The translations under genes were made by a program, and so were the position numbers. A stretch of 64,000 bases of DNA from Hypanus sabinus (Eukaryota), in assembly GCF_030144855.1 (NCBI RefSeq), contig NC_082712.1:141918001-141982000 (forward strand), written 5' to 3'. How positions within the stretch are numbered: the stretch's first letter is position 1; every line of letters starts with the position of its first letter. Shown piece by piece: positions 2,390 to 16,300 of the stretch. Below the pieces are notes generated by a model. It did not search any database. It was not told where the DNA came from and worked only from the letters and a program-made list of their open reading frames with translations.

Positions 2390-5300
2390 AATAAGTTATA
2401 CTTCTAAAATTAAGAAGGAATATATGATAAAAATAGATCGATTGGAAAAAGAGATTACAAAATTAGAAAAAGAATCTCAAAGAAATATGACAGAAGAAAA
2501 ACAAAGACAACTTATTAATAAGAAGTTACGATATAATACACTCCAGACATATCGAACAGAAAAAGCAATTATGAGAACTAAACAGAGATATTATGAACTA
2601 GGTGAAAGATCACACAAGGACCTTGAATGGCAGTTAAAAACAGACCAGACTTCTAAAACAATAAATGCAATTCGAACAAGAGTAAATAAAATTACTTATA
2701 AATCTTTAGAAATTAATGAAACTTTTAAGAATTTTTATTCTGAGTTGTATAAATCAGAATCACAAAATGATAATGTCAAGATAGAAAGGTTTTTATCACA
2801 AATAACTCTTCCAAAATTAAATACGGAAGAACAGAAGGGATTAGATATGCATTTTACATTGAAAGAGGTCAAAGAAGCCCTAAGATCACTTCAAAGTAAT
2901 AAATCTCCAGGAGAAGATGGTTTTCCGCCTGAAATTTATAAAAAGTTTAAAGATTTATTAATTCCTTCTTTTATGGAGTTAATACATCAAGCGGAAAGAA
3001 TGCATAAACTTCCAGAATTTTTTTCGACAGCTATTTTAATAGTATTGCCAAAAAAAGGTAGAGATCTTTTAAAGCCAGCATCATATAGACCTATTTCTTT
3101 ATTAAACACTGATTATAAGATAATAGCAAAAATCTTATCTAACAGATCATCTAAATACTTACCAAAATTAGTACATATGGATCAAACAGGATTTATTAAA
3201 AATAGACAATCGGCAGATAATGTAACTCGGTTATTTAGTATAAATCATTTGGCGCAAAAGAGGGAGGAAATGAGTGTAGCAGTTGCTTTAGATGCAGAAA
3301 AAGCATTTGATAGATTGGAATGGGATTTTTTATTTAAGGTATTGGAAAAATATGGATTAGGAGTATCTTTTATAAAATGGATTAAAACCTTGAATACTAA
3401 TCACAAAGCTAAAGTAGTGACAAATGGTCAAATTTCAACACCATTTCAGTTAACAAGGTCAACTAGGCAAGGTTGTCCATTATCACCTGCTTTATTCGTG
3501 TTGGCGATAGAACCATTAGCTGAATTAATTAGAATGGACCCAGATATTAAGGGTTTCAGAGTTAATCAGGAAGAATACAAGATTAACTTATTTGCTGATG
3601 ACGTTCTGCTTTATTTAACAAACCCATTGCACTCGTTGCGTAAGTTATCCTACAGATTAGAAGAATATGGGAAAATATCAGGTTATAAAATAAATTGGGA
3701 TAAAAGTGAAATTTTACCTCTTACTAAAGGAGAGTATAGTCAATGTCGATTAATAACTCAATTTAGATGGCCAGCAAATAGTATAAAATATTTAGGTATA
3801 AGAGTTAATAATGATATAAAGAACTTATATAAATTAAATTACTTACCATTATTGAAAAAAAATTCAAGAAGATCTTGATAAATGGATGGTATTACCAATA
3901 ACATTAGTAGGTAGAGTAAATACCATAAAAATGAATATATTCCCTAGACTACAATACTTATTCCAATCACTACCAATACAACTACCCCAGAAGTTTTTTC
4001 AAGAGTTAAACAAATATGTGAGGAAGTTTCTCTGGAAAGGTAAGATATCAAGAATAACGTTGGAAAAATTGACATGGAAATTTGATCTGGGAGGGTTATA
4101 ACTTCCAAATTTTAAGAATTATTATAAAGCAAATCAACTTAGATTTATTGCATCTTTTTTTGAGAAAGATAGACCAGCATGGATTAGAGTAGAACTAGAT
4201 AAAATAGGAGAAAATACACCAGAAGATTTTATATATAAATGGGAATCTAAATGGATACGGGAAAAGAAAGAGTCTCCTATATTAAAACATTTGATTGACT
4301 TATGGAGTAAGATAAATGTTGATGAGACAAAGAAATCTTTATTAGCAAAGAGATCTTTAATTCAAAATGGACTTATTCCTTTTACAATGGATAATCAACT
4401 TTTATATAATTGGTTTCAAAAAGGGATTAGATATATAGGAGATTGTTTTGAAGGAGGTATATTAATGTCATTTGATCAATTAAAGAATAAATATAAAGTA
4501 TCAAACAACACTCTTTTTTGTTACTTCCAACTAAGGGCTTATGTAAGAGAAAAATTAGGTCAAACAATGTTATTGCCGAAATCTAATGAAATAGAAACTT
4601 CAATTCAAAAAGGAAAGATTAAAAAATTTATTTCTTGTATGTATAACTTGATTCAAAAACAGGCAATTAAACAAGTTCATAAGTCAAGACAAAAATGGGA
4701 AAGTGACTTGAATATTAAAATTGAAGAAACAAATTGGTCAAGACTATGTCTTGACAGTATGACAAATACAATAAGTGTCCGGTTAAGATTAGTGCAATAT
4801 AATTTTTTACATCAATTATATATTACACCAGAAAAAATAAATAAATTAAACCCAAATTTATCCAATCAGTGTTTCCGATGTAATCAAGAAATTGGTACTT
4901 TTTTACATTCTACTTGGTCTTGTTCTAAAATTCAACCTTTTTGGACAAATTTAAGAGTTTTATTGGAACAAATTATTGGAACACAACATCCACATAATCC
5001 AATATTATTTTTACTCAGTGATATTGAAGGGATAAAACCAAAACCCAAATTGAATAAATATCAGAAAGAATTTATAAAAATTGCACTGGCAGTAGCCAAA
5101 AAGGCTATTGCAGTTACTTGGAAATCGGATACATACTTAAGTATAGATCATTGGAAGAAGGAAATTTATGGCTATATTCCACTTGAAAAAATTACTTATA
5201 ATTTAAGAGATAAATATGAAACATTTTTGAAAATTTGGCGCCCTTATTTACAAAAGACAGGATTAAATATATAGGTGCTCCGAAGATGAAATAATTGGTT

Positions 5301-5522: not shown

Positions 5523-7150
5523 AAGTGACTCCCCTTTGGCATCTCCTCAGTCTCTAAACTCTTTCAGATGAGGATGAACCACATTTTGGAGGGATTGGAA
5601 TGAGTAGCCTGCCACATAGATGATATACTCATCTTCAGAGGCTCAAGTGAGGAACATGACAAAATAGGGTGAAGCTGCCTTGGAGAAACTGAAGCAGGCT
5701 GGAATCACCCTGAGCAAAAAGAAATGCTAATTTACAAAGTTGGAAGTAAAGTTCTTAAGCCACCAGCTGTCCTCAGATGGATTTCTACCAGATTCAGACA
5801 AACTGGCAGGAGTTTGGAAAAACTTATGAATCTATCAGAGATCTATAGATTCCTAGGCATGGTAAAGTTGCTGGGAAAATTCACTCCAGATCTGGCAGAG
5901 AAAACAAAACCACTACATGACCTTCTCTCTCAGAGAAATGTTTGGATCTAAAACACACCACACGAGAAGTCATTCTCATCATTTAAAGCAGTTTCTCTCT
6001 CTGCCAATATTGGCATTCTTTGATCGGAATAAAGCAACCAAGGTCTCAGGCGACACCTCTTCAATTGGCCTAGGAGGTGTGCTCATGCAAACCTGCAGTG
6101 ACATATGGAAACAGGTGGCATCTGCATCAAGAGCACTGGCCCCTAATGAACAGCGTTATGTCCAAATCGAAAAGGAGATGCTGGCTCTCATGTGGGCTAG
6201 TGAACACATTATCTGCTATTTGATAAGCACAAAATTCCTACTTGAAACAGACCACAAGCCACTTCTCAGCCTCCGTAGCTCAAAACAGTTGGATGGCTTA
6301 CCTCCACATCTGAAAAGATTCAGAATGAAGCTTATACGATACTATTATGACATTGAACATGTCCCCCAGCAAATCACTCACACCACCAGACACTGTCAAG
6401 GATGCCATGCAAAAGTGAGTGGATGAAAGCTGACTCCACCCTCATAGAAGATAACAACATCTACTTTGCTCAGCTATATTAAAGCTCTCCCGAATCACAG
6501 AGTAAACTGGATATAATTCATGCTGAGTTGAGAAAAGACCAAATCTGCACCAAGGTCATACAATACAGTGAGCATGGATGGCCAATTGTTCAAAAAGGAG
6601 CTCACAAACTCAGACCTGGCTAGTTTGAAAGAGACACACTCTCCATTCTTGGTGATTTGCTGCTAAAGGGCTCCAGACTCATCATTCCTGCTTCTATGCA
6701 TGCCAAGATCATCAGTCAAATCTGAGGACATCAAGGCATCAAAAATTGCCACCAAAAAGCAAGATAATCCATGTGCTGGCCTGGTCTGAGCACACAACTG
6801 GGAGATTACGTAAAGCAATGTGTAGCCTGCAAAAAAATACACAAAAATCATGCTGAGTTTCTCTGTCTTACTGAATTCCAAGACTTTTCATGGCAATTCG
6901 TAGGCACAGACATTTTCAAGCTGAAAAAAGACAAATATCTTCTCACTGTAGATTATTACTCAAGTAACATTGAGATGTCCAAATTGTCTTCTACATCCTC
7001 AGCAGAATCTGAAAACTGTATTCACTCACCGTGGAATACCAGAGACAATGGTCCCAAATTCAGCTACTTAGAATTCAAAGCCTATAAGTTCAAACAGTCC
7101 AGAGCACCCACAGGCAAATGGAGATGTGGAACGAGCAGTGTAAACTGAAG
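5523..7150 (+). pseudogene. Remainder of Gypsy pol: RT (HIDD), RNase H, partial integrase
   Basis: CHIDDILI near 5610; DTSSIGLGGVLMQ, YVQIEKEMLA and ETDHKPL; WPG...CVAC and YLLTVDYYS. Confidence 0.9.
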
Positions 7151-7842: not shown

Positions 7843-8579
7843 GCATGTGGTTATTCTAGCAGAGAAGGCGAAGGCGAATCCCAAGGGCTTCTACAGATAT
7901 ATAAAAAGCAAAAGGATAGCAAGGGACAAAATCGGTCCTCTGGAAGATCAGAGTGGGCATCTATGTGTGAAGCCGAAAGAGATGGGGAGATTTTTAATGG
8001 ATATGCATCTGTATTCACTCTGAAGATGGAAACAGTGACTACAGAAGTGACACAAAGCAGCAGTGAGGTGATGGGTCTGATACAGGTTACAGAGGAAGAT
8101 GGGATTGCTGTCTTGAGGTGGATAAATCTCTGGGGCCTGACAAGACGTTCCCTCAAAACCCAAGGGAGGCTAATGCAGAAACTGCAGGGGTTCTAGTCAC
8201 TGATATTTAAAATGCCTAAGCCATGGATGAGGTGCCGGAGGATTGGAGGATAGCTAATGTTGTTCCGTTGTTTAAGAAAGCCTCTGAGAACAAGTTGGGA
8301 AATTACAGGCCGGTGAGCCTAACATCAAGAGTGGGAAAGTTATTAGAAAGCATTCTAAGGGACTGGATATGGATAGACAGAGGCTAATTAGGGATAGTCA
8401 GCATGGGTTTGTGTGTGGTAGACCGTGCCTATGTAATGATCTTCAGATGAGTGAACCCAGGTGCAGAGTAAATTCAGGACTCAATGGTAGAAATTAACAA
8501 TGAAGATTTATTCAGAGAATAATACAGGGAATAATCAAACTAGGAGCTCACTTACTCAGACACTGATCTACAATTTGCT

Positions 8580-10151
8580 GAGTCACACATTTTCTTCCCC
8601 AGAGGCCACTGCAAAATCATTCTGTGGCAAGGAACTAATCTGGGTGCTACAGTCTCCTCTGCTGCTTTTCCATGGGAACCGATTACTTCAAATGGGACCA
8701 CTCACACTGAATGCTCTTTATATTTTGTGTGCGTCTGCTTATTTGGAGACTTGGCAATCATGTGTTGCTGCTCAGTTTCTGATGCCAAATTATCTGCACT
8801 AGTAACCTTCATTGAAGTATTAGGGTCACTTGAATGATCCCATCTTTGTAGAAACTTGTTAGGTGGTGGGAATGCTGGGGTTAGATCTGTAAAAGCTTCC
8901 TCTCAGAAAGAAACATTACAGCTACAATGACAAAGGATCCCAGTCACCATTTTCCCACCATTCTTTCTAATAGTGATTTCTCTGGATCTCAATCCTCTAA
9001 ACGTGGTTCACTGCCTGAATGTCTCTGCACGTGAGAAATTCCTTTCCTAATTTTCTCTTCCTCATGTACCCGGTCCAATAGATATCTTAAATACGCTGAA
9101 CGGGCATGTTGCACCTCTTGTTTAAACCAAGGAGGCGATGAAGCTTTCAAGAAGCTACTGGGAGAGATGGCAGATCTCTGGCTCTGTTCCAGGAAAGCAA
9201 ATAACCATTGAAGTTTCATCATTAAGGGCTGTGAATCAGTCTCCTTGAGTAGCATAACAGCATGCCTGTAGTCAGAAGCTTTTAAAACATTCCTGAAAGA
9301 CACTGTTCTTGTAGCAGGTATTGCCAAGATCTGCCAGTCGTGTCTTTCTTGTATATAATCTTGCAGCAAGTCTTGACTACAAAGGTTCCAATGCATTTCT
9401 TTGTGATATCAGGCACTCTGATTGAGCAGCTGCTCTAGTTTTTTTCTCGTTTGGAATTGGAAAATCCTTTAGTGCTTAACAGGTTCATATAGGTTAGGGA
9501 AGTCTGAAAAATGGAAGTTCATGCAGTGTACCAATTCAGACTGTTGTTGTGACAGCTTATTGCAGAGTTAGAGAGTAACATCATTAATTAGGGTATGTGA
9601 GGAACAAGCACATGAAATGCTTCTGATGAAAGTTGGAAACTTAGAAGTCTATATTTCAGCATATAAGCTCCTGCTCTTACAACTGGGGAAGAAAAGAGCC
9701 TTGAGAACACCTGTTCAATTTGTGAAAGTGTGATTTCAATCAAAAAGCTGAACTTCTTCACAGCAGTTAAACCTTTCAGTAAGCCAATAATGCACTTGCA
9801 TGTGTTATTGGCTAATGGCCATGAAAGCCAATCAATCATATTGGTTAAAGCAGTCATCATCTTTACATCCATGATGCAATTACCATTTGTCAGGTTTTGA
9901 ATCCATCCATAATTTTCAATGGCTCATACTGGACCACAATGGACAATGCATTTGATGCCCCATCAGATACAGCCACATCCTTTTGGAATTGCATATCACT
10001 CAACAGAATTAACTTTGTAGACAACTCAAACATAGCTATGCACTGTTTACAGTTGAGAGGTTCTATGCTGTTTCTAAAATGAGTCTTACAAGAATGTGCT
10101 TTACAGAAGTTGATGGCAAGGCAACATCACAGCTTCCTAAATCTGGTCCAT
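8580..10151 (-). pseudogene. USP35: Processed (intronless), internally deleted and 3'-truncated ubiquitin-specific peptidase 35 copy
   Basis: MDQI*EAV start at 10151; MIDWLSWPLA..IIGLLKGLTAVKKFS; EAFHVLVPHIP; Cys box LGNTCY (9311-9325); SQPLMMKLQWLFAFLEQSQRSAISP; YLLDRVHEEEK; GGKMVT; EEAFTDL.PAFPPP. The QPLM.KLQWLF and AFPPP motifs favour USP35 over USP38 (from recalled sequences). Many stops and frameshifts; the low-coordinate end is approximate. Confidence 0.88.
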
Positions 10152-10369
10152 GTCTTTTCAATTCTATTTCCTTCAACCAATGTTTTTTTTACTTCAATCA
10201 CATCAAGATTCCAATACAACAAATATTCAATTTTGTACATGCCATCCATGGAAAGTTACAACTTGAGATCATCCTTCAAACAGTTAGCTGGCAGACACAA
10301 AGGGGGGAAGACAATAAACTTAAAGATCTCTATCACCAACCACAAGTTAGTGACTCCATAATTTCTAGA

Positions 10370-11801
10370 ATATTCCTCCATAGCTTGCCTCTCTGGAGCA
10401 GACAAGGCATAGAGCCTTCCTCAGCTGGACATGTACCAGGTAGTAAACTGATGGTGCAATTGTATTCTCTGTGCGGGGGAAGCATAGGAACTCTCCTTTT
10501 GCTGAACACCTCCAAAAAATCCCAATTCTCTGAAAGCACTCTAGACAACTCCACTGAGTTCAAGTCTGGTCTTGTGTGTCAGGAGGCAACTCAACCTGGT
10601 TCATACCAAGTCGCTCAGAAACTTGGGAAGGCAAGTTGGGACCTCGGGAAGGTATCTCAAAACCTCTGCAAAGGTACTTATCCCAGCACTGGGTTGACCA
10701 ACCCTGAATGGTACCAGAAGACCAGTTAGTCCCAGGATTATGAAGATGTAAACATGGATAACCAAGGATAATAGTAACAATCAGTAATCCTTGAGAATCA
10801 TGGAGAATATAAAAGATGGAAACTATTTGTCTCCTTGTACCTTCCAATATTCAACTTGAGAGCAACAGAAAGATAAAAGATTTGTCCAGTTTCCAATGGT
10901 CTACCATCCAGGGCCATAGCAGAGATAGGCTGGTCGAGATGTACCTTATTAATTTGGATTCTCTCTGCCAGTCTGGTGTCCAAAAATGTGCTCACTAAAC
11001 CAGAGTCTACCAGGGCTCTCACAGAATGTTGATGTCTCCCCTAAGGCAATAGGTATAGTAAAACTGCTCCAGGACTTGATGGAATGGGAGAGAGACTTGG
11101 GACTATTACAGTTCTCCCCTCACTGAATGGTTCTGGAGTCTTCCTGAAAACTCAGGGGAAGTGACTCAGAAATGGCCGGGCTTACCACTGAATAAGCAAC
11201 ATCTCTACTTTACACATCTCTCTCACTCTGCTGGGGACACCTAGGTTCTTCCAAGTTGCCTTGGTTCTTCCGGAGATGACTCTGGGGATTTGTGTTGGTT
11301 ATTGGATTGAGGAACTGGGGCAGGCATTGGGTAGATCTGAGAACTAGACCTCTGGGTGAACTCACCAGATCTCTCCTTCCTTCTTTCAGAAATATGGTTG
11401 TTGATTCTTTTGGCCACTTCCAATAGTTCTTCCAACTCTTCCACCTAATCCCCGGTCACAAGAATGTCTTTCAGCCGCCTAAGAGGAGGGAAATTATACA
11501 GGCCATCTTGCTCCTGTCCAAGAGGAAATTTGCGAGCAGTAATTCAAAGACTAGGGAGCATTGATCTCAGAACCCATGGCAAGACTCAGGGTTCCCATTG
11601 TGTCGCTCCAGGACTGGCAGCTTAATTCATTCTCCACAGTAGTTCTGTGAACACGTAGCAGGAAACACAGGTGAATGCCCAAAACCAGAGTCTTTCTGCA
11701 AAGATGCAAGCGTGTCCCTGGAGAAACTCTTCATGCCGCCCTGCTGCCTGTCCTTGACAAGCCAATGTCATGCAAAGGTGATCAATATCTGTTGGGTACA
11801 T
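10370..11801 (-). pseudogene. Gypsy gag, protease and start of pol of the USP35-bearing element
   Basis: MYPTDIDHL start; CLFSGKPGHF knuckle relic near 11170-11205; RALVDSG protease; ILGYP.LHLHNP..NWSSG; LPPHREYNCTISLLPG; LSAPERQAMEEY, after which similarity stops. Confidence 0.85.
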
Positions 11802-11802
11802 A

Positions 11803-13396
11803 CAGTGGCGTGCAGAAGTTTGGGCACCCCTGGTCAAAATTTCTGTTACTGTGAATAACTAAGCGAGTAAAAGATGAACTGATCTCCAAAAGTAATTAAG
11901 TTAAAGATGAAACATTCTTTTCAACATTTTAAGCAAGATTGGTGTATTATTTTTGTTTTGTACAATTTTAGAGTAAAAAAAAGGAAAGGAGCACCATGCA
12001 AAAGTTTGGACACCCAAAGAGATTTGAGCTCTCAGATAACTTTTACCAAGGTCTCAGATCTTAATTAGCTTGTTAGGGCTATGGCTTGTTCACAGTCATC
12101 GTTAGGAAAGGCCAGGTGATGCAAATTTCAAAGCTTTATAAATACCCTGACTCCTCAAACCTTGTCCCAACAATCATCAGCCATGGGCTCCTCTAAGCAG
12201 CTGCCTAGCACCCTGAAAATTAAAATAAATGATGCCCATAAAGCAGGAGAAGCCTATAACAAGATAGCAAAGCATTTTCAGGTAGCCGTTTCCTCAGTTC
12301 GTAATGTAATTAAGAAATGGCAGTTAACAGGAATGGTGGAGGTCAAGTTGAGGTCTGGAAGACCAAGAAAACTTTCTGAGAGAACTACTCGTAGGATTGC
12401 TAGAAAGGCAAATCAAAACTCCTGTTTGACTGCAAAAAACCTTCAGGAAGATTTAGCAGACTCTGGAGTGGTGGTGCACTATTCTACTGTGCAGTGACAC
12501 CTGCACAAATATGACCTTCATGGAAGAGTAATCAGAAGAAAACCTTTTCTGTGTCCTCACCACAAAACTCAGCGTCGGAAGTTTACAAAGGAACATCTAA
12601 ACAAGCCCAATGCATTTTGGAAACAAGTTCTGTGGACTGATGAAGTTAAAATAGAACTCTTTGGCCACAATGAGCAGAAATATGTTTGGAGAAAAAAAAG
12701 GTGAAGAATTTCATGAAAAGAACACCTCTCCAACTGTTAAGCACGGGGGTGGATCGATCATTTTTGGGCTTGTGTTGCAGCCAGTGGCATGGGGAACATT
12801 TCACTGGTAGAGTGAAGAATTAAATACCAGCAAATTCTGGAAGCAAACATCCCACCATCTGTAAAAAAAAGCTGAAGATGAAAAGAGGATGGCTTCTACA
12901 ACAGGATAATGATCCTAAACACACCTCAAAATCCACAATGGATTACCTCAAGAGGTGCAAGATGAAGGTTCTGCCTTGGCCCCTGACCTAAACAGCATCG
13001 AAAATCTGTGGATAGACCTCAAAAGAGTAGTGCATGCAAGATGGTCCAAGAATCTCACAAGAACTAGAAGCAAGGAAGAATGGATGAAAATCCTCCAAAC
13101 AAGAATTAAAAGACTCTTAGCTGGCTACAGAAAGTGTTTACAAGCTGTGATACTTGCCAAAGGGGGTGTTACTAAGTCCTGATCATGCAGGTTGCCCAAA
13201 CTTTTGCTCTGGGCCTTTTCCCTTTTTTGTTATTTTGAAACTGATGGAAATAAAAAAGTAATCTTACTTAAAATATTAAAGAAATGTGTCATCTTTAACT
13301 TTATGCCTTTTGGAAATCAGTTCATCTTTTACTCGCTTAGCTATTCACAGTAACAGAAATTTTGACCAGGGGTGTCCAAACTTCTGCACGCCACTG
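11803..13396 (+). mobile_element. Full-length Tc1-family DNA transposon (1594 bp) with long IR/DR-type TIRs
   Basis: TIRs CAGTGGCGTGCAGAAGTTTGG... / ...CCAAACTTCTGCACGCCACTG of about 200 bp with inner direct repeats (~11996-12015, ~13191-13207). TA TSD at 11801-11802 and 13397-13398. Confidence 0.96.
12183..13182 (+). pseudogene. Tc1 DDE transposase, inactivated
   Basis: Paired-like HTH with [19 protein letters not shown] and [10 protein letters not shown]. Stop at 12495 plus frameshifts. Confidence 0.93.
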
Positions 13397-16300
13397 TAAC
13401 TAGTTGAGTCCTGCTGTAATGATCTTCAGATGAGTGGACCCAGGTGCAGTGTAAAGTCTGGACTCAATGGTAGAAATTACTGATGAAGATTTAAGAGTCC
13501 TACTGCTACCCAGTGCCCCTCACTGGTCTGATCATGACAGTCTAACCAATCATAGAGTCTTTTGAGAAAGTTACCAGGAAAGTTAATGAAGATAAGGCAG
13601 TGGATGTTGTCTACTTAGACTTTGGCAAAGCCTTCTTCTAGGTCCCGCATGAGAGCTCGGTCAAGGAGGTTTAGTCACTTGGAATTCAAGATACTGGCTT
13701 CACAGGAGAAGCTGGAGAGTGGTAGTAGACAGTTGCTTCTCTGAGTGGAGGCCTGTGGCTAATGGTGTGCCACAGGAATCGGTGCTGGGTCTGTTGTTTT
13801 TAGCAACATAGAAAACCTACAGTACAATACAGGCCCTTCAGCCCACAATGCTGTGCTGGACATGTCCTTACCTTAGAACTATCTAAGGTTACCCATAGCC
13901 CTCTATTTTTCTAAGCTCCATGTAACTTAAAACTGAGGTGATTGAGATAAACCATTGGAACTTGTAAAAGTCTGGCTGCAGGGTTGGAAACAGCAGATAC
14001 TCATTAGAAGAACTATGTCAAATTGGATTCAATAAGGGTTGATGTGCCCTGAGACTTGTAGCTGGAACTATCACTGCATCTGATTTGCATAAATGATCTG
14101 AAACTGATCCAAAGCCATGGAAATTTCAGATACCATACCACAAAGAACAGTGTAATTACAATCAAGCAATTCAGCAACCAACAGGATGTTACACCACATA
14201 TGTAAGGGAGCAAAACAAAGGGATTTTCAGTGCAGGGTGGTGTAGACAACTTCACATGAAAGAAAGGAACAGATTACACATTAGGTCATGAATCAAGTGG
14301 ATAGAGAGAAGGCTTAAAGACCCTGGAATCAGGGGTATTTACAAGTCCAACTAAAGAAATGCAGTAAAATAACAAAGTTAGCACCATTGTACTCATGCTG
14401 GAATACACTGTGACATCTGATCTTCGAGAAGTAAGAGAGAATGTGCTATAAGTTTATTTAGCCTATGACAGAAGACTGGAAATTCATCCCTCTTCACTTG
14501 CTCTAAGTGTGGTCATGTCAGTACTTTACACTCTGTCTCTGTTTGAAGCAGAACAGTCCATATGTGGTTATTAAGTCTCAACTCGTGGAAGCCTAATAGG
14601 CTTCCAACAGCATGTCTTCTCAGCCTTTCAGTTCCACTGTTCCGAAATGTCTCTGATGATCAGAGGCTTACAGAAATACAAACTCAGTAAATTAATATAA
14701 TATAATATCGCGTTAGATGTTATGATCTTACTGTTTATTTATTAAGTCATTGAAGAATACTAAATGCAAAAATAAGCTCATTTATCAGGCATTAACTCTC
14801 TGCAAAGTGAACAAATGCTTCTTAAGTTGTTCACAAAATACAAACTAGAGGGATTTCCTCCTGAAATAAGTGATAGAAGCAACATAGTGTTATCAGACTT
14901 AAAAACAGTTAAGAGTGAAACTGATGATCACAAACTGCAAGAGTTAACCAAGTAGAGTAGACTTTATTTATTAGAATAGAGATCGTTTAGATTGAATACA
15001 TTTTTAAAATAAAATGACTGGTTGTTATTGTCAATAAATGACATTTGATAGATCTTCACATAATGTGCTTTAGCATCAAACAATATTCAATTAAGCTCAT
15101 TGTATTGACTAAGCAATACACTTTTGGGCAACTACAAATCAAGATGTGTTGTAAAAAGATCATTGATTCATATTCAAAACTTGAGTATGATAAAGGTAGA
15201 TTGAATGGAGAGCTGCCAAATCCCATGCATCTAAAAATGCTGCTTTGGCCAATAATCCTAACCTAACAATGCAAGTCATCACTATTAAATGAATAAGCTG
15301 TTTGCTGCCACATTTTATGGAGTTATCATTTCACTGTAAATTTTCTGTGACTAAAAGGATTTATATAAAGAGTAATGGAAACCTGGGACTGATTACAAGG
15401 CAGTAATCCAATTGAAGGGTTCAGATGACATCATGAACTGCAAGAATGAAGCTGCAGCAGTTTATAACAGTCATCTGAAGGCTAAATTACTGACTTAAAT
15501 CATTCCATAGTTTTTATGTACTTTATGCACTGTTAATGTAATTTAACAGTTTTCCTTGGTTTGAATTCATCCTAGTCCAATAGACAGCCTGTGAGGATTG
15601 ATTTTCAATCAATACAATGGCTTTCACTCCGAAGGAGAAAGAAGTTCCAACTAACTTCTAAGAAAGTTACTGAGCAATATCATTAAAAACTTTCACTTTC
15701 CACAGTGAATATGTAGTATCATGCAATGTTATGGTGATGAAGATGTCAAATAAAGATGGTGAGTGTGTTCTCAATGGAATGTAGAGTATCACAGGCTGAG
15801 ACAGTCTTACCTACTAACCTTTTAAATTGTGTCATGATTCCATTCTCTTCTCTAGAGTCAATCTCAAAATTATCATTTCACCTTTCAGACACAGGTAAAA
15901 ATTCTGCTATTCCATTACACAGTGAGGTAATTAGTTACTTCATGCAGTTAAGACAACAATTATATTTTGTAAACATCAGCTATGTTTTGTAACAGCACTC
16001 ACTTTTAGCTTGTAGAGCTTGGCAATGTCCTGGCTTTTCATGATGCCATAACACAGAGGCGTGTTGAAACTTCTTCTGCCGAAGAACAGTGAGCCTTTGG
16101 AATTCTTTGTCCCGGAGGGAGAGGGAGGTCAGATCAGAGGAATATTTAAAGTGGAGAGAGATAAATATTTCAAAGATTTTGGGGAAAAAAGAGCTTTGGG
16201 AAACTGGCATAGAAAAGGGGACATGATCTAGAGTAAATTAGCCGTGGTCATATTGAATTCAGGGCAGGCTTGGGGGATCACATGTTCTACTTCTTCTTCT

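Follow-up and report, generated by a model that had tools for sequence, protein, structure and literature searches.

A dispersed chromovirus family carrying spliced USP35 sequence in the genome of the stingray Hypanus sabinus

Introduction

How does a spliced host mRNA come to lie between the two ends of a retrotransposon, and what becomes of it there? This question is raised by a locus in the genome of the stingray Hypanus sabinus (NCBI RefSeq assembly GCF_030144855.1, contig NC_082712.1, positions 141,918,001 to 141,982,000 of the forward strand; this whole stretch of 64,000 nt is called the window). On the minus strand of window positions 8432..13539, the remains of a Gypsy element with long terminal repeats (LTRs) enclose an intronless copy of the deubiquitinase gene USP35. 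A first interpretation made from the letters alone, here called the sequence-only reading, had described a Gypsy element whose pol was replaced by captured USP35, and had proposed an oncoretrovirus-style transduction which produced a non-autonomous, possibly dispersed family. We followed up this proposal in the host genome, in contigs of public sequencing runs and in the literature.

Results

The element was confirmed as a decayed, sushi-like chromovirus (Gypsy) in which the interior of pol is exchanged for spliced USP35 complementary DNA (cDNA). On the minus strand a 5' LTR remnant is followed by the primer region, remnants of leader, gag and protease, the start of pol, the USP35 cDNA and the end of the 3' LTR (Table 1). 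The LTR ends (8432-8510 and 13415-13493) share 91% identity over 79 nt and are flanked by a 5-bp target-site duplication, GCCTA and GTCTA, with four of five bases in agreement. In other copies of the flanking long interspersed nuclear element (LINE), loose ends read GTCTA at the point of the insertion; this LINE is, to judge from its motifs, presumably CR1/L2-like, and two fragments of it gave no useful match to Pfam. The protease remnant matches PF13650 (E 3.7e-5). Three stop-free gag fragments had no Pfam match; gag was assigned by its position and because the corresponding region of pol-bearing relatives is about 70% identical to it in DNA. The pol start terminates at LSAPERQAMEEY; in a relative, RVT_1 matches from profile position 1 at L066:7127-7444. 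The cargo that follows lies on the same strand as gag and protease and is recognizable by the USP35 domain PF21246 (E 1.3e-35) and the Cys box GNTCY (9325-9311), and its coding part contains six stops and 11 frameshifting indels. Neither introns nor poly(A) nor a His box was seen in the window cargo. Since the pol frame stops at a TAA within captured exon 2, in the untranslated region (UTR), no Gag-USP35 fusion is made.

The 3' limit of the cargo is peculiar to this copy. The window copy has lost about 720-750 nt in a private deletion: where it passes directly into the LTR end, its sister copies continue for about 300 nt in USP35 and then through the chromodomain tail, a polypurine tract and the full LTR of ~441 nt, most of which is missing here. 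In each of the four public runs compared, which derive from four organisms, the pol/USP35 junction is bridged by contigs that are 93-98% alike, and long pieces from these contigs span exon joints; no bridging contig for the private deletion at 8556 was among those listed from these runs. The structure is thus confirmed not to be an assembly artefact, and the presence of the junction in four organisms implies that the window insertion predates their split.

The cargo matches separate exons of a host gene at G000:C17:59655330-59686826. Ten of them match at 79-89% and exon 1 is additional, which makes 11 exons over 31 kb of C17. The large exon of this donor gene is 100% identical to P0001, a USP35-like protein of H. 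sabinus with 994 residues, a Cys box at residue 451 and a His box at 822-830. Exon 2 shares 82% identity with the cargo UTR. A genome search with a piece of exon 1 did not recover the host gene; local alignment later did (summed score 219 against a mean of 97 with a standard deviation of 11), and placed exon 1 in a CpG island, ending at a splice donor. In the window and in five other inspected copies an internal donor of the first coding exon is joined to the next exon, so that 501 nt are skipped in frame. This short form agrees by length with an annotated isoform of 827 amino acids (P0124; P0123 in Mobula). The skipped 501 nt have a single genome match, the host gene, and the same holds for the part of USP35 located 3' of the junction. 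At this alternative donor (L046:853-1353; G000:C17:59660853-59661353) 167 amino acids are removed, and the retrocopies show that the short form predates the split of stingrays and devil rays. Two further observations were made in passing. The copies carry about 20 nt in exon 1 (window 10355-10335 region) without counterpart in today's host, which may go back either to a deletion in the host or to a duplication in the founder. An intact USP35 paralogue, probably USP38, is located on the same contig (G000:C17:130638376-130647705; 40-61% protein identity).

On these points the sequence-only reading was largely borne out, by Pfam matches and exon-by-exon alignment: matching LTR ends with a 5-bp duplication, spliced USP35 from the ATG at 10151 through GNTCY in the orientation of gag, no poly(A), and a copy dead as a protein. 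Other claims had to be narrowed. Both LTRs are 125-nt remnants, with a Tc1 transposon on the inner side of the 5' one, and of the gag-protease region only the protease stands by Pfam. The ~210 nt of supposed "non-Gypsy sequence" were placed correctly and are the USP35 5' UTR from exons 1-3, the captured cDNA is the short splice form, and the passage "straight into the 3' LTR" exists in the window only as the private deletion; the true family junction is in the chromodomain.

A genome search with the cargo yielded at least 62 matches, host exons included; 40 of 49 candidates were scored here and 40 of 108 in the search with leader, gag and protease described below, and all counts are therefore lower bounds. 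USP35-bearing elements are dispersed over at least 12 loci (the window on C25, two on C26, four on C16, one each on C27, C19, C110 and C1, and one on C35 at 3.99 Mb), and in C35:42.97-43.73 Mb tandem copies were found at about 20 places. Ten of the 11 dispersed copies tested reach the 3' LTR terminus, with ten different flanks; in the C35 copy at 3.99 Mb an LTR was looked for and none was seen. Target duplications were present in all four readable copies (window, C19 and C16c with 4/5 bases, C27 with 3/5), and in total 15 of 20 bases match (P about 1e-5). Only four could be read: for each of C26a, C16a, C26b and C16d another 10 kb was searched without recovering a 5' LTR, and the 5' LTRs of C1 and C16b are partial. 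These are several independent insertions of one structure, as expected from a non-autonomous LTR family with pol-bearing relatives as helpers, and the dispersed copies almost certainly spread as an LTR element. An inverted 3' part of a USP35 element, either an inversion or a second copy, was detected at L082:7506-7880, some 10 kb away from the C110 copy.

The search with leader, gag and protease identified at least 30 dispersed loci, seven of them USP35-bearing. Twenty of the other 23 were fetched; none contains USP35, and 13 (one being the reference itself) have a common pol interior over more than 1 kb. In the USP35 copies about 2.5 kb of this interior is absent. The relatives gave matches to reverse transcriptase (RT), RNase H, integrase, SH3 and chromodomain (PF00078, PF17919, PF17921, a weak PF00665, PF24626, and PF00385 with E 1.1e-5); their chromodomain is followed directly by the polypurine tract and LTR, which leaves no room for env. 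No other captured mRNA was evident in the stop-free frames of six relatives inspected by eye. By raw count, the primer region is complementary to a site within the LTR at 8-10 of 11 bases in seven of seven copies tested; in five of the seven this site is 159-179 nt from the LTR end. Self-priming has been described for Tf1/sushi-group chromoviruses (PMC4600332). With them the carrier shares TG...CA LTRs, the 5-bp duplication and, in its pol-bearing relatives, the order protease-RT-RNase H-integrase-SH3-C-terminal chromodomain; a primer site complementary to its own LTR may be a further likeness. It differs in that the USP35 subfamily is without pol. By these features the carrier appears to behave like a Tf1/sushi chromovirus.

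The chimera has two junctions. Five of six aligned copies exit pol at the same point into USP35 exon 1, and the sixth has other sequence there. At the 3' side USP35 gives way to the integrase chromodomain at codon 805 of 994 in all six copies aligned, two of which have short private deletions at or beside the junction. Pol and USP35 have 4 nt in common at the 5' junction and 6 nt (GGAGGA) at the 3' junction, as the microhomology check suggested by the sequence-only reading brought out; of random switch points, 1.8% would be expected to share 4 nt or more and 0.18% to share 6 nt or more. The 3' join retains the USP35 frame into the chromodomain tail. The His box is located 16 codons past it, and any chimeric protein would therefore be catalytically incomplete. 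The hexamer GGAGGA occurs at both points where the element RNA is left (window 10374-10379; L068 near 6936), possibly a pausing or switching preference.

We infer two RNA-level switches, and consider it probable that reverse transcription in a particle with both RNAs changed template twice and that mobilisation in trans followed. A self-priming chromovirus particle would have co-packaged short-spliced USP35 mRNA. During minus-strand synthesis, RT would have switched from the element RNA to the USP35 mRNA at GGAGGA within the integrase chromodomain, followed the mRNA from codon 805 back to exon 1, and rejoined the element RNA at AGGA just ahead of the RT domain. The product would have kept both LTRs, primer site, gag-protease and polypurine tract, but no RT, RNase H or integrase. 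With these supplied in trans by pol-bearing relatives, it may then have reached at least 12 dispersed sites in a single burst; later, one truncated copy would have been duplicated in tandem about 20-fold, and the cargo would have decayed as a passenger.

Several observations weigh against this sequence of events. The 5' microhomology is short, an RNA-level 5' switch and a DNA-level deletion would look alike in the sequence, and about 20 nt of the copies' exon 1 are missing from today's host exon. In several dispersed copies one junction is deleted. No diagnostic site in gag-protease separates 8 USP35-bearing from 19 other copies, and the gag-protease tree is a star with low supports in which the USP35 copies are not grouped, so that a single origin rests on junctions and splice form. 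Since gag-protease distances are 0.26 both within and between the two groups, this tree neither shows nor excludes a single clade and would fit one burst soon after capture. Finally, stops in the cargo are rarer than expected, at 0.68 of the neutral expectation (95% confidence interval, CI, 0.48-0.99), a weak signal based on 230 four-fold changes.

The closeness of the 5' junction to the probable transcription start, in the CpG island, together with its 4 nt of microhomology, would also suit a two-step course as in the retroviral model of transduction. In this course an element would first have landed at the promoter of USP35, and loss of DNA would have joined its pol start to exon 1. Once the read-through RNA had undergone splicing and packaging, a template switch would have made the 3' junction alone, with the same later spread. 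The product would look identical, and the promoter allele bearing the element need not have been fixed. Exon 1 is intact, however, no LTR or gag remnant was found in 70 kb around the host gene, and there is microhomology at both junctions as in the published double-switch cases (PMC5131818); we regard this course as unlikely.

A short microhomology at the 5' end is compatible with LINE insertion as well, and LINEs are abundant in this DNA. A LINE could have placed USP35 cDNA of nearly full length within pol of a single element, whereupon a microhomology-mediated deletion took the USP35 3' end, the poly(A) and the remaining pol, before the LTR machinery spread the result. Two events, each of them rare, would be required, as well as a cDNA that reaches up to exon 1. 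No intermediate was found, the 3' part of USP35 being present in the host gene alone, and the cargo shows none of the marks of a LINE-type processed pseudogene (intact 3' end, poly(A), target duplication of its own). Such an origin appears very unlikely. Either alternative would alter only how the founder arose.

The date of the capture can be bracketed by the copies themselves. The cargo tree of the dispersed copies is star-like with branches of 0.11-0.14 substitutions per site, and LTR pairs differ by 0.085-0.20 (six copies). At 29 codons most copies differ nonsynonymously from today's host; 22 of these carry the outgroup residue, five are changes on the element side and two are ambiguous. 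All six residues that stingrays and devil rays have in common with sawfish are present in the copies, as are 20 of the 28 that arose on the stem of stingrays and devil rays (seven are ancestral, one is a tie); of five stingray-only residues the copies have none. A stretch of four residues, which is missing in Hypanus, Hemitrygon and two Mobula, is kept in nine dispersed copies as well as in sawfish, skate, electric ray and a shark. This pattern places the capture late on the stem of the stingray/devil-ray clade, after the sawfish split and before that of stingrays and devil rays; divergence dates would make it Cretaceous.

Since then the cargo has evolved about neutrally, as a passenger that is now decayed. 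Twenty copies were scored, among them eight of the about 20 tandem copies. Nineteen contain 3-12 stops and 4-17 frameshifts; the exception covers just 263 nt, and every examined copy with more than 500 nt of cargo is broken. With the mutation spectrum taken from four-fold sites, omega of private changes is 0.91 (95% CI 0.79-1.05); a raw Nei-Gojobori omega of 0.63 between copies was dropped as evidence of selection in favour of this corrected value. Four of the five most recurrent stops are at CGA codons. The intact and selected cargo of a functional, v-onc-like transduced gene was not found.

A role of the cargo might be imagined in two forms: USP35 without catalytic activity, joined in frame to the chromodomain tail, could have acted as a decoy in the ubiquitin pathway, or the copies could give rise to small RNAs directed at USP35. 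Such a role might be read from the slight stop deficit, from the 3' junction being in frame (one in three by chance), from the lack of any frameshift common to three or more dispersed copies, and from the presence of USP35 in seven of the 30 best dispersed gag-protease matches listed. The tandem array in repeat-dense DNA also resembles Pxyfem (PMC9674220). If so, the decoy would have helped the chimera to make up about one in four of the dispersed copies that match best, or the array would be a germline source of small RNAs targeting USP35. No RNA run with this sequence was among those listed, which speaks neither for nor against expression. Yet almost all scored copies are broken, omega is near one, and the stop of the pol frame in the UTR precludes a Gag-USP35 fusion. 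The sampled array copies are at least as distant from the host gene (nonsynonymous divergence 0.15-0.22) as dispersed copies (0.10-0.16), and the 13 long perfect matches, where 8.7 were expected, are no clear enrichment. We consider such a role highly improbable.

The array (C35:42.92-43.73 Mb) is an old tandem arrangement of units of about 15-35 kb in repeat-dense DNA, and the long frames of the 50 kb sampled gave no evident host gene. Its copies form one clade in the cargo tree, have flanks in common beyond the element and lack the 3' LTR, and are therefore segmental duplicates of one truncated copy; segmental duplication or mis-assembly as the explanation of the copies in general is nonetheless next to negligible, given the LTR termini, differing flanks and target duplications of the dispersed copies and the window junction in contigs of four organisms.

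Coordinates of the window element are compiled in Table 1. The Tc1/mariner insertion, later and foreign to the family, lies 15 nt inward of the 5' LTR; its inverted repeat is 121 nt long (93%), with matches to PF25787 and PF01498. Elsewhere in the window, long frames at 1026-2277 and 5866-6423 resemble a second, unrelated element which we take to be Gypsy-like, split by a presumed LINE with long open frames at 2391-5271. The remainder contains repeat-like frames only.

Table 1. Features of the USP35-carrying element and its insertions (window positions)
Feature	Position	Strand	Remarks
Target-site duplication, 5' side, GTCTA on +	13540..13544		within LINE
5' LTR remnant, 125 nt, TGT...ACA	13415..13539	-	middle ~316 nt of ~441-nt family LTR deleted
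Primer-binding region	13399..13414	-	complementary to site within family LTR; putative self-priming type
Tc1/mariner insertion	11803..13396	+	TA duplication 11801-11802, 13397-13398
Leader, gag remnant, aspartyl protease remnant	10600..11800	-	many stops, frameshifts; protease about 11028-10894
Pol start up to 5' switch point	10374..10599	-	in relatives the RT domain comes next
5' junction microhomology AGGA	10374..10377	-	common to pol and USP35 exon 1
USP35 5' UTR	10152..10373	-	exon 1 (to 10274), exon 2 (from 10273), exon 3 start
USP35 coding cDNA, short splice form	8557..10151	-	ATG 10151, short donor near 9973
3' LTR, final 125 nt	8432..8556	-	
Target-site duplication, 3' side, GCCTA on +	8427..8431		

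Discussion

Acutely transforming retroviruses are replication-defective and helper-dependent, with cellular cDNA in place of replication genes. The USP35 family is similar in outline and differs in that its relatives have no room for env and its cargo is without His box or clear selection. Of the sequence-only reading's transduction, capture by an LTR element stands; because no selected or catalytically complete cargo was seen, LTR-mediated retroposition (PMC5131818) is the closer precedent and is preferred to oncogene transduction. Its dispersed, non-autonomous family was verified by shared junctions in different flanks. The objections it had foreseen did not materialize: the genome search found no USP35 3' end outside the host gene, and the junction recurs in other organisms' contigs.

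LTR retrocopies have been described by Tan (2016; PMC5131818) with secondary mobilisation in Drosophila and with cases in zebrafish, chicken, mouse and human; microsimilarity was present at both switch points (median 6 bp), and CG17604_r and CG10212_r each had more than one insertion site. As far as that paper is drawn on here, the USP35 family agrees with it in a spliced, intronless and partial mRNA which replaces internal reading frames between two parts of one LTR element, in two microsimilarities, both LTRs and a target duplication at the level of the element, and further in stronger 3' truncation, missing poly(A) and later non-autonomous mobilisation. Their cases are recent, whereas the USP35 family is old, extends across species and belongs to cartilaginous fish; its size, at least 12 dispersed and about 20 tandem copies, may be surpassed in their supplementary tables. 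Maize Bs1 and human HERV-K/FAM8A1 are further LTR elements with transduced cellular mRNA, FAM8A1 with microsimilarity at the fusion points and Bs1 with pieces of three genes (PMC5131818); here, in contrast to Bs1, a chromovirus took up a single mRNA, beginning with its exon 1. Pxyfem of Plutella xylostella yields PIWI-interacting RNAs (piRNAs) against its parent gene (PMC9674220). LTR template-switch retrocopies, tandem multicopy arrays and repeat-rich DNA are common to both systems; piRNA production is a feature of Pxyfem, whereas the C35 copies drift neutrally. Among the titles and starts of abstracts listed by our literature search, with most subscription papers and all supplements outside its scope, none describes the USP35 family.

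The USP35 family is thus a case of LTR-mediated retroposition with secondary mobilisation, a mechanism already known, and no new mechanism or function is shown by it. It stands out by its age, its copy number and the completeness of its record, as donor gene, helper family, both switch points, splice form and phylogenetic bracket can all be read in one case. It demonstrates that a vertebrate Gypsy element can carry 2 kb of host mRNA through a burst of retrotransposition, and it explains dozens of broken USP35-like matches in one genome. The copies preserve an ancestral ray USP35, including the four residues since lost in the compared stingrays and devil rays, and they show that the short splice form is old; it was probably made in germline cells or the early embryo. 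Presence or absence of the insertions could be used as a marker in the phylogeny of rays.

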